From: Nitrosopumilus sp.
GTDB lineage: Archaea > Thermoproteota > Nitrososphaeria > Nitrososphaerales > Nitrosopumilaceae
DNA length: 64,000 nucleotides
Direction of reading: 5' to 3'
Assembly: GCA_965238275.1 (NCBI GenBank)
Contig: OZ250186.1
Location: 288,001-352,000 of the forward strand
Shown: positions 19,744 to 58,766 of the stretch, one piece after another
Layout: each line of letters opens with the position of its first letter
How positions within the stretch are numbered: the stretch's first letter is position 1
Made by a program: the position numbers and the translations under genes
Notes under the pieces: generated by a model
Databases searched by the model: none
Seen by the model: only the letters and a program-made list of their open reading frames with translations
Told to the model about the DNA's origin: nothing

Positions 19744-21184
19744 TAGTATTACGATTAAAGATCTGAAAAACCAAAGTCAGGTGAACCTGCCTTTTGGATG
19801 AACCTGTAGGCCAAACCCCGTTCTGGACGCATGGTGCGCCATGCAGGCGAACAAGACGGCGGGGGAAGCAGGCGTGGCTGCCGTCAGATCTGGAGTCTCC
19901 GATGGAATCATTCGGGCAAGGCCGTGATGCCTCAGGATGGGATGCCATAATGAACCGTCTGCTGCATCGAGCGTGTTATGTAGAAAGGGGGACTGTCAGG
20001 CCGTCAGGCGGGCGTTCCGGTGCGGAAACTGCATCCGGGCTCTCCCGAATCTTTATGGCATCCAGTATGTACTTGAACAGCTTTACTCTGGCCACCTCTC
20101 CGTCATTGAGCATCTTTCTGATTCTCTTCTCCAGCCTGTCAAACCCGCCAAAGAACGTGTCTGCAATCGCCCTCTTGATCTCCCTCCACTGTACCTCTAT
20201 GGGGTTGTGCTGCGGCGTGTGCGGGGGCAGGAACCACCTTACTACGGCACCATTTGCCTTCTCGATGAACTCGTCCATGTCCTTGCTCTTGTGTGTAGCC
20301 GCGTTGTCCATTATCACAAAGACCCTCCCGTACTTTTGCCTGATCTCCTCCAGGAGTGCGATTACGTTCTTTGTGCCCAGCTTTTCATGGAACTGCACGT
20401 CCAGAGTGTCCTCGCCAAGGGCACCGATGATCTTGATACTCTTCTTGGAATAGTTGATCTTGATTTCGTCGCATCCGCCCCTGCGCCGTATGCCGCGGCT
20501 GGATGCAGGCGAGTCGACCAGGGCTGCCGCATCCAGACACACCACCTTGTAGCGCTTCTGGACATACGTTTCTATCTCCCTCACGGTATTCTTTACGTAC
20601 TCTTCCTGCTCCTGCACGGTGGCCGAATTGTACGGCGCCGGTCTGGTCTTCCTGACTGAGAAGTTCAGTCTGGCCGTAAGCCTGAGGGCTCCGTCGGCAC
20701 TGTACCTGACGTTAAACGTATTCAGGATGTGGCAGGAGACGAGCTTGGCTGTCCAGTTGCCTCGTTGGAAGCCGCTCTCCTCGGGGCTCTTCTCCAAGGC
20801 CTCGTCCAGACTGCTCCTCTGCGGGTCGGACAGGCGGCACGGCCTGCCGGGGCTCTTGCGATCGTACCTCCTCCCCGTGTCGCCATCCAACCGCAGTAGC
20901 CAGCCGTGTATCGTACTCTGGCTTTCCGATGGCCTCGGATATCTCATTTAGAAACTTGCCCTTTTTCCTGTGACAAGCCGCCTGCAACATGATCTGGGCC
21001 TTGCAGTCCTTTTCCTTGGCCTGCATCGATTGGAGTTCCTCCTCACTGATGTCCTTGAGGAACTCCTCCCCACGTTTTACCACTTTTGCCGGCCTCACGG
21101 GGTTTCTTGTGGGATGATCGATCTGAACCTTTCGGTTTGCCGTGACTCATAATTGGGTTTTCCGGATCTTTAATCGTAATACTA
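19744..21184 (-). mobile_element. IS630-family element
   Basis: TIR tagtattacgattaaagatc at both ends, with TA. Confidence 0.88.
19976..21098 (-). pseudogene. IS630 transposase, frameshifted near 20920
   Basis: N-terminus in ORF 20712-21098, remainder in ORF 19976-20947 (DNAATH, LPPHTPQHNPIE). Confidence 0.82.
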
Positions 21185-21205
21185 TGCATGTGCAATGGTT
21201 GGTTT

Positions 21206-22384
21206 CTAGCAGGCAACGGCTGCACGATTTGGCGGTCCCGCGTGGTACTGCAAACGTGTTTTCACTTCCGGCGTGGCAACGGCTGCACAGTTCAGTGGAG
21301 GTTCCGGGGTCGGAAGGACTGCCGTCCTGGTCTCCCCAATGACGCCGCAGGCCTCTAGCATGTACCACAGCATCTTGATCCGGGGAATCTCTCCGCTCTC
21401 CACCAACAGCGTGATCCTTTCCTTCATCTCGTCGGATCTGCCAAAGAACGTGTTTGATATGGCCCTTTTAATCTCCCTCCACAGCATCTCGATGGGGTTG
21501 TGCTGCGGGGTACGCGGGGGAAGAAAGCACAGGGCCACCTTGCCTTTTTCGGACCGGACATAATCCCTCATGGCCCTGCCGGTGTGGGCGCCTGCGTTGT
21601 CAAGGATCACGAAGATCTTTTCGTGTTTTTCACGGAGCTTCTTGAAAAATGCAATTATGCCTTCCGCCTTCAGGTTTTCCGGATAGTCAAGCTCAACTGT
21701 GTCTTGGCTCATGGCTCCAATGACATGGACGCCCTTTTTGGAATAGTTGACACGGACTGTATCCCTCTCGCCCCTGAGCAGTATGCCGTATTTTGGGACC
21801 GGCGTGTTGATGATGCTGGCTGCATCAAAGCAAAACAGCTTGAAACCGTTCTTGTGGTGTGTTGTTATCTCCTTGACAGTATTTTTCACGTATTCCTCCA
21901 GATCTTCCTCCGTGGCCGTGTTGTACGGCACGGGCCTGCGCTTTCGGACTGAGAAGTTCATCCTGTCAGTCAGCCTGAGGACTCCGGAGATGCCGTACTT
22001 TATGCCAAACGCATTGCCGATGTGGGAGGCGACCATGCGGGCAGTCCACATGTCCGAGCAGAAGCCGCTCTTTTCAGGACTGTCACGAAGTATGCCCTCC
22101 AGGTGTATCCGGATGCGCTCTGACAGGCGGCACGGTCTGCCGGGACTCTTGCAGTCATGCCTGTACTCCAACCCTCCGACTGCCAGTCGCATCAGCCAGT
22201 CATATACCGTGCTCCTTGCATATCCGATGGCATCCAAGGACATTCCCCTCTTCCGGTGTATGGCTGCCTGTAGCCTCATCTTGGCCTTGTGGCAGGATTC
22301 CTTGCCTTGCATGACTTTAAGATCCTCCAGAGGGATATCTGGAAGGAATTCTGCTCCCCGCTTTATTCTTTTTTCACTAGGCAT
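21206..22384 (-). CDS. IS630-family transposase
   Basis: FCFDAA, LDNAGAH, LPPRTPQHNPIEMLW; 392 aa uninterrupted. Confidence 0.9.
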   Translation of the reverse strand: MPSEKRIKRGAEFLPDIPLEDLKVMQGKESCHKAKMRLQAAIHRKRGMSLDAIGYARSTVYDWLMRLAVGGLEYRHDCKSPGRPCRLSERIRIHLEGILRDSPEKSGFCSDMWTARMVASHIGNAFGIKYGISGVLRLTDRMNFSVRKRRPVPYNTATEEDLEEYVKNTVKEITTHHKNGFKLFCFDAASIINTPVPKYGILLRGERDTVRVNYSKKGVHVIGAMSQDTVELDYPENLKAEGIIAFFKKLREKHEKIFVILDNAGAHTGRAMRDYVRSEKGKVALCFLPPRTPQHNPIEMLWREIKRAISNTFFGRSDEMKERITLLVESGEIPRIKMLWYMLEACGVIGETRTAVLPTPEPPLNCAAVATPEVKTRLQYHAGPPNRAAVAC

Positions 22385-28130: not shown

Positions 28131-28631
28131 GTGATGATTTCTGACTGGTTCCAGAGGGTGGGAAGTTCTGTTCCCAGGGGGTTCTCGCGATACTATGTCC
28201 TGGAACTGCTCAAGACAAAACCGCACACCGGAAAGGAGATAATCGACCATGCAGCAGAGCAGAGCAACGGGATGTGGAAGCCCTCGCCGGGGCTTGTCTA
28301 TCCGCTGCTAGGCAGGCTGCTTGAGGAGAAACTGATCGAGGAGACGCCCGACGGAAGATACCAGGTTACGGCAAGGGGCATGGAGACTGCAGGAGACATA
28401 GACAAGATAAACGAGACTGTCAGGAGGCAGCTGGACGTGCTGCTGAGGCTGGGAAACGTCGGAAGGTTTGTGGCAATGGATCTTCTCGAGAGGATATCAA
28501 TGATGGGTGCGGTTCTAAGCGCCAACATGGAAAGCATCACCGACGAGGAAAAGGAGAGGTACAGGGAATTCCTCAGGGACGAGCTTGACAAGATTGACGG
28601 CAAGGATGCAAAGGAGATCAAGGTAGAGTAG
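28131..28631 (+). CDS. PadR-family transcriptional regulator
   Basis: WKPSPGLVYPLLGRLLEE...YQVTARG. Confidence 0.9.
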   Translation: MMISDWFQRVGSSVPRGFSRYYVLELLKTKPHTGKEIIDHAAEQSNGMWKPSPGLVYPLLGRLLEEKLIEETPDGRYQVTARGMETAGDIDKINETVRRQLDVLLRLGNVGRFVAMDLLERISMMGAVLSANMESITDEEKERYREFLRDELDKIDGKDAKEIKVE

Positions 28632-28692: not shown

Positions 28693-31057
28693 ATGGACAG
28701 GAAGATCCTATAGTGAAAAGCGAAAGTTCGTGCAATTTTTTGAGATCCTTTTTAAGAAAATAAATCTCAACTACAGGTATGATTGTCAGTAAAATCATCA
28801 AGATAACACAATCTCGGGAACTGTCACGCAAGATCGTGAAATGCTCCCGGGAAACAGACATCGTTTACGACATGACAATCATGATGAAACTTGCACATCC
28901 CGGGATCACACAGTTTGATGTCAACAACCTGATAACAGGATGGCGCAGGGAATTCAACCTGACCAGCAGCGTCTACATGCATGAGGCCGCCTCAAAACAG
29001 GCTTTCCAGGCGGCAGTCAAATTCCGCAAGGCAAACCGGCTCAAGCACAACAAGCGCATCTGGCGCAAGAAACAGATCAAGCTGGGGAAAAAGAAGACGT
29101 ACAAGCACAATCGGTGGACCGAGCCGTCCAGCCTGATGAGGCGCGGCAGGAAAACAACCAGGCTGCGCTCGCTGAATTCACGCGGAAAGCCAAAACTGCG
29201 GGACGACGGCACCGTATTTCTGCCCGGACTCGGGGAAGCAAGGCCACGCACGAAGGTTCCAGAAGGCAGGCTCGTGTCATTCCAGATGATTGACACCACA
29301 GGCAAGGTCACGCGTAAGACCAAGGATGGTGATCGCGAATTCAAACTGCATTTGCAGATAGAAGTCCCAGACCCCGAACCCGCGACAGGTGGTGGTGGCC
29401 GCGGATGCAAGGCAGGGCTGGATCTTGGAGTCAGGCACCTTGCGGCAGTCGCAGACGAGCATGGGAATGAAAAACTGCACAATGTCCCCGGAGGCTGCAA
29501 GAGGCATGACGGCGACAGGATTGATCAGCTGAAATCGCTTAGATCAAGATGCCAGGCAGGCTCCAGAAGATGGAAAGAGATCGGCCGCAAGGTAACGCAT
29601 GAATTGAAAAAGATATCAAACAGGCAAAAACACAACGAGGCCGACATTGCCAGGCGGATAACAAAAGGACTGTCCGTATTGTTCTTGGAAGACCTGGATT
29701 TGACCAGGATGAGGAGATCCAACGGGGCGGCTTCAAAGACGGGGTTGAACCGCGAGATGGCCTATTCCAGAATGGGCGAGTTCAGGATCCAGCTTGAATG
29801 GCAGATGAAAAAGAAAGGCGGAATTTCAAGACGCGTGGAATCCGCACATACAAGCCAGAGATGCGCTGCCTGCGGGGTAGTGGACAAAAAGTCCAGGAAC
29901 GGTGAATCATTTGTCTGCGTCTCATGCGGATGGTGCCACCATGCCGACAAGAACGCGGCAAAAAACATTTTGGATAATGACTGTCTCCATACGGAGGAGA
30001 CTGGCGGCCAAGCCCACGGGAATCGTGGAGGCACCATTGCAGGTGTCGAGGTCGTCACAAGGCGCGAGGATCACGGATCGGATGGTTCTGGAATGAACAA
30101 TTCGACAGGTCGGCTTGGACCCGACAACGACGACAATATTGGAAGGTCTGACAGAGCGCCGGAAAGAGCATCAGGACATGCTACAGAGAGATCTGTTTGC
30201 ACGAATTTTCGCTCGCCGCTATAGTAGCCGTAATAATTGCAATTCTTGCAGTATTGGTGATAGATGTGATGACCTCGATGCTTCAGTCTGAAGAGGCAGG
30301 AACCGGCATGCAGACAGGACAGGAGACGGCCGGACTCCAATGGACAAACGTCCATCCCAACGTACAGACGACCTTCAACGAGGATGCGGCAATGCCTGCC
30401 ATTGAATCCGGCGCATTCATTCATCCGTTTGCAGTGGTTATCGGGAACTGCCATATTGGAGAGATGGTCTTTGTCGCACCCACTGCAGTATGCAGGGGGG
30501 ACGAGGGGACGCCGATTCGCGTGGGGGACGGATCCAACATGCAGGACGGGGTGGTGATCCACGCACTAGGGACAGTCGAGGACGGACGCAACATCGATGA
30601 CCGCCGGTTCTCGTCTGAGGGTACCAGGCTGAAAGGGGACGATCCGGCGTTTGCAGACGGCTACGCCGTCTTTGTCGGGGACAACACGAGCCTTGCGCAT
30701 GGCGCCATGATTCACGGACCGGCATGGATTGGAGACAACACGTTTGTCGGGATGGAGGCGCTCGTGTTTAATGCAAGGATCGGAGACGGGGTTGCAGTGG
30801 GGGTGTCTGCCACCGTTACAGGCGGCGTCGAGATAGCCGACGGCAGGTTCGTGCCGCCGGGCGCGGTGATCACCACGCAGGAACAGGCAGATTCGCTGCC
30901 CGAGCGTGTCGGGAGCGCGTACGAGGCCACAAACAGCGCGATAATTCACGTCAACCGGCAGCTTGCAGAGGGGTACGGCCTTTTGGACATTGAGAGGTTG
31001 ATAGAGCAGCGCGAAAAGGCCATGGAAGAGGGAATGTTGGAGACATCCCTACCGTAA
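28693..31057 (+). CDS. Gamma-class carbonic anhydrase with N-terminal hydrophobic segment, interrupted after codon 6 by the TnpB element (main ORF 30197-31057)
   Basis: Hexapeptide repeats, RGDEG, NMQDGVVIHAL, SLAHGAMIHGP; removing the element restores MDRKILVAVIIAIL in frame. Confidence 0.85.
28711..30221 (+). mobile_element. Non-autonomous TnpB-only element with IS630-like TIRs and TA duplication
   Basis: 25-bp imperfect TIRs (20/25 identical) at 28711-28735 and 30197-30221; TA at 28709-28710 and 30222-30223. Confidence 0.85.
28779..30224 (+). CDS. tnpB: RNA-guided endonuclease TnpB
   Basis: RuvC-I GLDLGVRHL, RuvC-II FLEDL, TSQRCAAC...FVCVSCG zinc ribbon, RuvC-III HADKNAAKNI. Confidence 0.93.
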   Translation: MIVSKIIKITQSRELSRKIVKCSRETDIVYDMTIMMKLAHPGITQFDVNNLITGWRREFNLTSSVYMHEAASKQAFQAAVKFRKANRLKHNKRIWRKKQIKLGKKKTYKHNRWTEPSSLMRRGRKTTRLRSLNSRGKPKLRDDGTVFLPGLGEARPRTKVPEGRLVSFQMIDTTGKVTRKTKDGDREFKLHLQIEVPDPEPATGGGGRGCKAGLDLGVRHLAAVADEHGNEKLHNVPGGCKRHDGDRIDQLKSLRSRCQAGSRRWKEIGRKVTHELKKISNRQKHNEADIARRITKGLSVLFLEDLDLTRMRRSNGAASKTGLNREMAYSRMGEFRIQLEWQMKKKGGISRRVESAHTSQRCAACGVVDKKSRNGESFVCVSCGWCHHADKNAAKNILDNDCLHTEETGGQAHGNRGGTIAGVEVVTRREDHGSDGSGMNNSTGRLGPDNDDNIGRSDRAPERASGHATERSVCTNFRSPL

Positions 31058-57146: not shown

Positions 57147-57171
57147 TATCAGTTCCATGTACCTGCGTATA

Positions 57172-58422
57172 TACCAAAAGTGAAAAGTTGATGCGATTGT
57201 CACATATTTTACCGCATCTAAAGTTATACCAATTTCACGTCCCACAGTCAATGAAGATCAAGACGATGTTGAAAAGATACGCCGCTGAGACAGACTGCGA
57301 TACCAAGGACCGCATGATGCTGATCATCAGAGTCAAACGTGACGGGATAACCATGAGGGATTCTGCAAAATCCCTGGGAAAGTCAGCCTCGTGGGGCTAC
57401 AAGTGGCACGAGCGCTACCTGGAAGTCGGATTTGACAGGCTGGGAAACATGCCGCGTTCCGGCAGGCCGACCAAGGCGAGCAAGGCAGACATGAAGAAGA
57501 TCAGAAAGGCCGCATGCAGAAAACCTGTCTGGACGGGCATGGAGATGCAGCAATACATCCAACAGAAGACCGGAGTAAGGTACGAACTCGGATATGTGCG
57601 CCAGATACTGCGCGGGTGGGGCTATTCCCAGAAGGTTCCCGTAGGAAAACATGCAAGGGCACCTGACGAGGAGATCAGGAAATTCCAAAAAGAGATGCCA
57701 GAGCTTATAAAAAAAAGAACAGCGAAGGAACAGTCGTAGCGATACAGGACGAGTCCATAGTAATCTCCGATGCGCGGCCGCGAAGACGCGGCTACACCAG
57801 GAAGGGAATACGGGCGTTTTTCACGTACACCGGCTCACACTCCAAGACGATAATCCACGGACTGATCACCACGGACGGCAGGGGCATGTTCCGGCAGTAC
57901 GACGCGTTTACCAAGGACACCTTTGAGGACTTTCTAAGGCAGGCGATGTACAGGTTCAAGAAGATCTGCCTGATCATGGACAAGGCCTCCCAGCACAGGG
58001 CATCAAACATACGCAAACTGCTTGATGGCACAGACGGCCTGGAGATAGTCTTCCTGCCAACTGCAACCCCGGACCTGAGCGCCATAGAGACGTACTGGAG
58101 GGATCTCAAACGGGCAGTGCTTGACGTGCCGTACACCAGCCTGAGCATGCTCCGCGAGGCGATCACCAGGTACACGAGGTACAAAAAACCGAATCTGGTC
58201 GTTGAAAACTTTCTGTACAGGGCCATCTAGAACGACATCAAACCGCACCGGACCCACGCCGCCTAGCGTGTGCCATGCACGGCGCACCAGAGCATGCAAT
58301 GTCTAATGTTCGGGGCGTCTTTTCTCGTCATTTGGGAATTCAACGCACCTCGTAATTTCCAGAGACGGCTGTTGCATCAAAAATTTATGAGCGATTTTGA
58401 TATGAATTTTTCATTGCTGGTA
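57172..58422 (+). mobile_element. IS630-family element
   Basis: TA-taccaaaagtgaaaagttgat / atgaatttttcattgctggta-TA imperfect TIRs. Confidence 0.8.
57251..58230 (+). CDS. IS630 transposase with probable programmed -1 frameshift at A8 (57709-57716)
   Basis: ORF1 HTH domains; -1 frame gives IQDES...MDKASQH...LPTATPDLSAIE; same A8 tract in the 9.8 kb paralog. Confidence 0.85.
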
Positions 58423-58766
58423 TACATCAGCATTCACAAAGATAATTCTAAGAGTTCTAGGAAAAACAAGGAAAAAAAATTGATATGGGATTACCACCCA
58501 ATATGCAACTCCCAACACAACTAGGATTCATTCCACCTTATCCTTCTTTCCCGATCAGCTACTATGTCCATAACACGTTTGTAGCCTCCCACAGAACGCC
58601 AATCAATCTCCGGGTAGTCACCACATTTGCAATTTTTCCTAGTCAGGTTGTCGTTAATTATCACGGTTTTGCCGTAGCGGTGTTTCCTTCTCAAAAAACA
58701 GATCATCTTGTGGATCTGCCGTAAAGGAGTGCCCATGCCGCCGCCAGCCTCGTTGCTTTCTTCATT

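Follow-up and report, generated by a model that had tools for sequence, protein, structure and literature searches.

What does a tnpB gene do between the inverted repeats of a transposon that carries no transposase gene, and what moves such an element? Cas12 descends from TnpB, a compact genome-editing nuclease whose biology is known, to our knowledge, almost entirely from IS605 and IS607 elements. These excise without leaving a scar. The question is raised by a locus in an ammonia-oxidizing Nitrosopumilaceae archaeon, within the 64,000-nt stretch of DNA that we analyzed as a whole (in the following called the window; G000:C1:288001-352000). The genome is a single contig of 2.217 Mb with 52.7% G+C and is 99.9% complete. 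An insertion of ~1.5 kb in the window has a PadR-type regulator gene (28131-28631) on one side and a hexapeptide-repeat gamma-carbonic-anhydrase gene on the other. Window positions 28711-30221 are one mobile element that carries only tnpB and a guide-RNA scaffold between IS630-type ends. We consider it probable that it is a non-autonomous cut-and-paste transposon of the IS630/Tc1-mariner type, in which tnpB and an omegaRNA scaffold have taken the place of the transposase gene, and that it is moved in trans and retained with the aid of TnpB.

The arrangement of the locus is simple. A C at 28708 is followed by a TA (28709-28710), a 25-nt terminal inverted repeat (28711-28735, plus strand), the open reading frame (ORF), the inverted 25-nt end (30197-30221, minus strand), a second TA (30222-30223) and a G at 30224. 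By manual count, the left and right ends agree in 20 of their 25 positions, and the five mismatches fall mostly at positions 4-9. A repeat search scored the pair at 28 nt and 82% complementarity when the flanking C/G and TA were included. The same search found an unrelated 28-nt inverted pair at 79% within the same 1.75 kb, and the inverted repeat alone is therefore not beyond chance. That the repeat and the boundaries are real follows from copies that share them, from break points in contigs of public DNA runs and from paralogous empty sites with 2 nt between the flanks. A whole-genome search identified 22 copies with 80-100% identity to the window copy, 17 of them contiguous and five broken by other insertions, as well as two additional 3′ fragments without an adjoining left end (genome positions 193617 and 35487). 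All complete ends stop at the same two positions, and some copies are 96-97% identical to the window copy. A search for short internal-deletion derivatives with both ends found none. Where contigs of three public DNA runs pass out of the element, their sequence splits into several different flanks, and the break points lie exactly at 28708 and 30223/30224; the summed depth of the element is ~30-70x that of the flanks.

A preliminary description of this DNA, made from the sequence alone, had placed 25-nt inverted ends with flanking TA at 28709..30224 and had proposed a search for other genomic copies. The boundaries it gave are right and are shared by the 22 copies. Their identity in all copies also rules out an IS605 element nested in a miniature inverted-repeat transposable element (MITE), for which boundaries differing between copies would be expected. 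Two observations on individual copies may be added. Three of them carry an inserted MITE of ~88 bp with inverted ends of ~16 nt and a 3-bp duplication, CAG or CTG (genome positions 1821627-1821716, 615467-615557 and 643115-643205). The copy at genome positions 951041-952545 is an 82% variant whose right flank (951012-951040) consists of 29 nt from the 3′ region of the element itself (query positions 1434-1462), which suggests insertion into, or rearrangement with, another copy.

Every complete copy is flanked by TA on both sides. The insertions at genome positions 710217 and 883619 lie in sequence that has paralogues. Four paralogue sequences, with 75-100% identity to the flanks, all have exactly 2 nt between the two flanks. 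These are TG and AA where the copies have TA, and the C that precedes them is present in the empty sites as well. The target duplication is thus 2 bp long, and the C belongs to the target. The examination of empty sites for a duplicated TA, likewise proposed in the preliminary description, was in this way possible at two other copies.

At the window locus itself, the insertion separates the first six codons of the gamma-carbonic-anhydrase gene (28693-28710, plus strand) from the rest (30224-31057, plus strand). Deleting 28711-30223 joins the six codons from the ATG at 28693 in frame to the sequence from 30224 onwards. The restored N-terminus is short and charged and continues into a hydrophobic helix. 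The same start was found in gamma-carbonic-anhydrase orthologues from other genera of the family (six of the seven ORFs recovered from nine loci); these were compared as protein only, the nucleotide junction being too diverged. The earlier claim that excision of the element with one TA restores the gene in frame agrees with both results. An orthologous empty site of the window locus was not obtained: the nearest relative, G017, has no carbonic-anhydrase gene between the same neighbors, and the only orthologue within the genus, in G057, is cut by a contig end. A TTG in the right inverted repeat opens a frame of 286 amino acids that runs into the carbonic-anhydrase gene (30197-31057); if transcripts run on out of the element, the interrupted gene might therefore still yield a protein, though with a different N-terminus.

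The only family-matched ORF in the element is tnpB, with 481 amino acids (28779-30224, plus strand). It matches the Pfam families OrfB_IS605 (E 8e-12; 45.8 bits, cut-off 30.5) and Cas12f1-like_TNB (E 3e-16; 60 bits, cut-off 26.3). An alignment to the solved ISDra2 TnpB covers residues 172-399 and has the catalytic residues D215, E304 and D390 (codons 29421-29423, 29688-29690 and 29946-29948, plus strand) in place, together with the CxxC..CxxC zinc finger (C362, C365, C380 and C383). The triad and the four cysteines are invariant or nearly so in relatives down to 31% identity. Best among the solved structures matched were ISDra2-type TnpBs (E 1e-8 to 1e-15), a giant-virus TnpB-like protein reached E 3e-8, and no chain named Fanzor was among the matches listed. 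By its sequence, the protein is a TnpB of prokaryotic size and type with an intact RuvC triad and a predicted nuclease activity, as the preliminary description had recognized in naming a tnpB with a complete D-E-D triad as the sole gene.

The tnpB frame is open over at least 447 codons in 16 of the 22 copies, with open frames ranging from 447 to 562 amino acids. The nuclease core ends near residue 400 (~29980), and the remaining ~80 codons overlie a structured RNA. The stop codon at 30222-30224 consists of the right TA and the flanking G, and the base after the right TA varies among the copies. It had been pointed out before that the stop is supplied by a target TAG; this is correct for the window copy. 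Because the last ~80 codons overlie the RNA and the position of the stop varies with the flank, the use of the target TAG is incidental.

The structured RNA extends from 29983 to 30214 on the plus strand and thus overlaps the tail of the ORF and reaches into the right inverted repeat, with which its last helix (helix 11) pairs. It was delineated from 21 copies in two genomes, whose last 330 nt were aligned; the consensus fold has 60 pairs, and compensatory changes occur in 21 of these. For a test of the pairing we counted the 50 pairs downstream of the coding core and used slid partners and 500 shuffles as controls. Paired cells made up 98.6%, compared with 34-48% in the slid controls, and pairs changed on both sides numbered 21 of 50, compared with 3-6. 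None of the 500 shuffles reached the observed value. The nucleotide sequence over the last ~80 codons is conserved across subfamilies, and a search of Rfam yielded no family matching the RNA. Judged from these alignments, the RNA lies and behaves as an omegaRNA scaffold should. Its position, together with the descriptions of TnpB and Fanzor in a 2026 review (PMC13565253), suggests that the right flank (30224-30243, plus strand) would be the template of the guide part.

Which transposase, then, moves the element? The complete genome gave no match to Y1_Tnp and none to the Resolvase family of serine TnpA proteins in profile searches in which control genomes were positive. IS200/IS605 membership was rejected on the grounds that no Y1 TnpA was found, inverted ends are present and TA is duplicated, and IS607 membership on the same two features of the ends and the lack of a serine TnpA match. 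The element has no DDE transposase gene of its own and is therefore non-autonomous; an examination of 93 tnpB loci showed no transposase match within 1.5 kb. The genome holds 34 IS630-type DDE_3 matches, which belong to several groups with different ends.

We compared the outermost 28 nt of each end. The ends of the tnpB element are identical in up to 24-25 of 28 positions to those of a group of 1.1-kb IS630 elements (genome positions 1873253-1874348 and relatives), and its own left and right ends agree in 20-23 of 28. The ends of this group are thus as close to those of the tnpB element as the two ends of the latter are to each other. No clear left/right correspondence between the two sets of ends emerged from the comparison. 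The 1.1-kb elements carry no tnpB, and two of them encode intact transposases of 337 and 354 amino acids (genome positions 2123921-2124931 and 1873267-1874277, respectively) with a helix-turn-helix (HTH) and a DDE_3 domain. Given the shared ends and the copies that are 96-97% identical, mobilization in trans by the 1.1-kb group is the reading best supported by sequence comparison. The preliminary description had proposed that resident IS630 transposases move this tnpB element, itself non-autonomous, in trans, and had suggested looking for its ends around such transposases. The shared boundaries, the 2-bp duplication, the lack of Y1 and serine TnpA matches, the 34 DDE_3 matches and the matching ends speak for this proposal.

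Homologues of the TnpB fell into 28 clusters at E<=1e-10. The family was found in three of the 121 genomes of the genus that were searched, and scans of viral and JGI metagenome sequences found no relatives. G017, the related genome mentioned above, has several subfamilies (57, 50 and 47% protein identity) in TA-flanked elements of ~1.49 kb with the same end type, and it also contains 1.1-kb IS630s that encode a transposase and have matching ends. A single, decayed copy of the same architecture is present in G403.

These three genomes also allowed us to compare the sequence next to the insertions. The C directly before the left TA, on the 5′ side of tnpB, is present in 22 of 22 insertions in the window's genome, 11 of 11 in G017 and in the single one of G403 (34/34). 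Next to the right TA, a C on the complementary strand occurs in 10 of 24 and 2 of 11 cases in the first two genomes, respectively. The transposase-bearing IS630s of the same end type, counted by eye for 15 elements from four genomes, have it at 12 of 29 ends (8/15 left, 4/14 right). By Fisher's test, left and right differ in the window's genome (p 9.5e-6) and in G017 (p 2e-4), and the left ends of tnpB elements differ from the transposase-bearing ends (33/33 vs 12/29, p 7e-8); the copies within a genome are related, so that these values overstate independence, and all 34 left flanks differ in sequence. At position -3 before the left TA, T is found in 18 of 22 insertions of the window's genome and in G403, and A in 9 of 11 of G017. 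The bases -3 to -1 at the window locus are T, C and C (28706-28708, plus strand) and together with TA form a candidate target-adjacent motif (TAM). A symmetric transposase with TA as its target should impose no one-sided constraint tied to the orientation of tnpB, and the one-sided C therefore points to a TAM. For Fanzors, the part of the review considered here describes the duplicated target on the 5′ side as being read as part of the TAM and the one on the 3′ side as lying in the RNA scaffold (PMC13565253). We see about an even chance that the left-flank motif T/A-N-C plus the duplicated TA is the TAM, and that the invariant C is the footprint of TnpB-dependent retention of a DDE transposon which itself demands only TA.

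These features can be combined into a model. The transposase of the 1.1-kb group would bind the shared ends and insert the element, in trans, at TA sites. Transcripts that run through the right end would carry flanking sequence into the omegaRNA as its guide. Where the element has been lost, or where a homologous copy of the chromosome is unoccupied, TnpB would recognize T/A-N-C plus TA as its TAM and cut, and recombination with the occupied copy would then restore the element. Insertions without the motif on the 5′ side of tnpB would be unprotected and become lost, which we propose as the reason why the C is invariant on this side only.

Several points weigh against this model. The system is known here from its sequence, and no transposition, RNA or cleavage has been observed. 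Contigs from one RNA run cover the element (X16, 28708-30022, with 34 differences and 6 gaps) and are uninformative about transcription, strand and ends. The contigs of the three DNA runs, which drop rare variants, contained no empty allele or excision footprint of the window locus and no joint that bridges the element. As set out in the review section consulted, excision by a DDE transposase already leaves a double-strand break, which makes the benefit of TnpB less obvious (PMC13565253). A transpososome with an asymmetric target preference could account for the invariant C without a TAM, and the comparison comprises only 29 transposase-bearing ends from several subgroups in four genomes. Moreover, the base at -3 is specific to the genome: T here and A in G017, whose subfamilies differ among themselves as much as they do from that of the window. 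This fits a cause linked to the host or its transposase as well as it fits a TAM, and an asymmetric target preference at least as well.

Some of these points would be accommodated if tnpB were passive cargo. An IS630 MITE would then have taken up an IS605- or IS607-derived tnpB-omegaRNA unit between its ends, and the composite would spread by the transposase only; TnpB would have no role in its upkeep, and the C on the left would be due to an asymmetric preference of the transpososome. With 5 of 25 positions different between the two ends, the complex need not be symmetric; some excess of C is seen at the ends of the transposase-bearing IS630s too (12/29), and the base at -3 tracks the genome and not the TnpB subfamily. 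We nevertheless regard this explanation as unlikely. The open tnpB frames in 16 of 22 copies, catalytic residues that are invariant across subfamilies down to 31% identity, and RNA pairing kept by compensatory changes together indicate selection on the tnpB-RNA module. Inner ends of the IS605 kind are not seen, and through helix 11 the scaffold pairs into the inverted repeat itself. The transposase-bearing relatives with the same end type have no invariant C at either end (8/15 and 4/14).

For the source of the transposase, the preliminary description had pointed to an IS630 at 57172, whose ends it found to resemble those of the tnpB element. This IS630 (57170-58424, plus strand; 1255 bp) and its ~10 sister copies form the commonest IS630 group in the genome and are TA-flanked as well. 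The resemblance of their ends to those of the tnpB element amounts to 14-18 of 28 positions, which is weak compared with the 24-25 of 28 found for another resident group, a value equal to the similarity between the element's own left and right ends. IS630-type transposases generally require their own ends, and we hold it very improbable that this group is the helper. The likely helper, as far as can be told from the ends, is the 1.1-kb IS630 group; the idea of a resident IS630 was thus supported and its assignment to the copy at 57172 was not.

The least tenable explanation, to which we give almost no credence, is an IS200/IS605-type element inserted 3′ of C-T-A-T-A without duplication and with coincidental inverted ends: the five bases in front of the left end recur at the close of the right end, and the conserved flank is on the left only, as in IS605, but the paralogous empty sites have 2 nt and not 4 between the flanks, such an element would leave an in-frame stop in the carbonic-anhydrase gene, the genome is without a Y1 transposase, and the ends match those of DDE_3 elements.

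A mobile tnpB element moved in trans by an IS630-type transposase has precedents. Altae-Tran et al. (2023) described TnpBs associated with an IS630-family DDE transposase and a separate HTH protein in elements with symmetrical ends, inverted terminal repeats in all six DDE-associated TnpB branches, and solo TnpBs with ends nearly identical to those of transposase-bearing systems, which was taken as mobilization in trans (PMC10691335). The 2026 review, in the section used here, repeats the association of IS630 and TnpB and calls such links rare in prokaryotes (PMC13565253). The preliminary description had assumed that association with terminal inverted repeats is typical of Fanzors and not of prokaryotic TnpBs. 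This background is out of date and too sharp, since IS630-linked and solo TnpBs have been described (PMC10691335).

The present element resembles the 'DDE-6 large branch' of that study in having a prokaryotic TnpB within an IS630-family element with symmetrical inverted ends and in the position of the tnpB 3′ end within 250 bp of the transposon end, and it resembles the solo TnpBs in having ends like those of transposase-bearing elements, with movement in trans proposed (PMC10691335). In the DDE-6 branch, however, tnpB lies beside the IS630 transposase and a separate HTH protein, whereas here no copy has a transposase within 1.5 kb, tnpB is absent from the transposase-bearing elements with matching ends, and these encode the HTH and the DDE domain in one fused protein. 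In the present case the host belongs to the Nitrosopumilaceae archaea.

With Fanzor1 in eukaryotic Tc1/mariner and other DDE transposons, as presented in the portions of the literature considered, the element shares a TnpB-type nuclease in a TA-duplicating transposon with inverted ends, the proposal that the duplicated target on the 5′ side is part of the TAM, and the existence of non-autonomous carriers (PMC3627910, PMC10530073, PMC13565253); unlike Fanzor1, the protein here is of prokaryotic TnpB size and type. Like the tnpB-only elements of the IS200/IS605 family (IS1341-type, PATE-like), it is non-autonomous and multi-copy, with a 3′ omegaRNA and a motif in the 5′ flank only. Those elements lack inverted ends, do not duplicate their target and need a Y1 TnpA, whereas the present one has inverted ends and a TA duplication in a genome without a Y1 TnpA match. 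IS630-derived MITEs, too, have ends like those of resident IS630s, TA duplications, no transposase and many copies, but they are short and non-coding, whereas this element is 1.5 kb long with a conserved gene and a structured RNA.

Literature searches on TnpB with IS630, on Fanzor, mariner and TAM, and on Thaumarchaeota names found no description of this archaeal family; the supplementary tables of PMC10691335 were outside these searches. Already known are the association of TnpB with IS630, the symmetrical ends and the solo copies moved in trans (PMC10691335). Added here are a family in Nitrosopumilaceae archaea, a tnpB-free transposase-bearing partner, a high copy number and a one-sided flank motif. 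It is no new kind of system, the association having been published in 2023, and the flank asymmetry is the part most worth an experiment. Many young copies and a tnpB-free helper with matching ends in the same genome, together with diverged sister subfamilies in a related one, make possible a clean comparison between tnpB-bearing and tnpB-free elements with shared ends. One can thus ask whether TnpB biases the retention of DDE transposons in prokaryotes, and a testable TAM is predicted. If the TAM interpretation is true, the insertions would amount to evidence from nature, at the scale of a genome, that TnpB acts by restorative homing together with a prokaryotic DDE transposon and shapes its insertion landscape, a prokaryotic case of a situation thought typical of eukaryotic Fanzors.

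Further features were seen in the window and elsewhere. A solitary terminus of the end type shared by the tnpB and 1.1-kb IS630 elements is located at window position ~374 (genome position 288374, minus strand), with no partner found nearby. Two adjacent DDE_3 elements of another IS630-like group (~1.44-1.48 kb) occupy window positions ~20100-21900 (matches at genome positions 308132-308545 and 309425-309838). A stretch of at least 46 nt with a weak match to the end motif occurs with identical sequence at 14 places, at window positions ~11807 and 40147 and at 12 other sites of the genome. Outside the family, this genome, in which no Y1 or serine TnpA was matched, contains at least seven further tnpB-type matches (for example at genome positions 171837, 577394, 1130379, 787096, 1933306 and 501442). 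A crude screen for inverted ends around eight other tnpB matches found none at seven and an unconvincing pair at one. Finally, distant TnpB relatives with 27-32% amino acid identity were found at 15 loci (L127-L141) in elements of ~1.85-1.95 kb. These elements have a different pair of perfect or near-perfect inverted ends, and L128, L129, L133 and L135 show direct duplications of 8 bp; they therefore represent a second kind of DDE-type carrier of tnpB in the same archaeal family.

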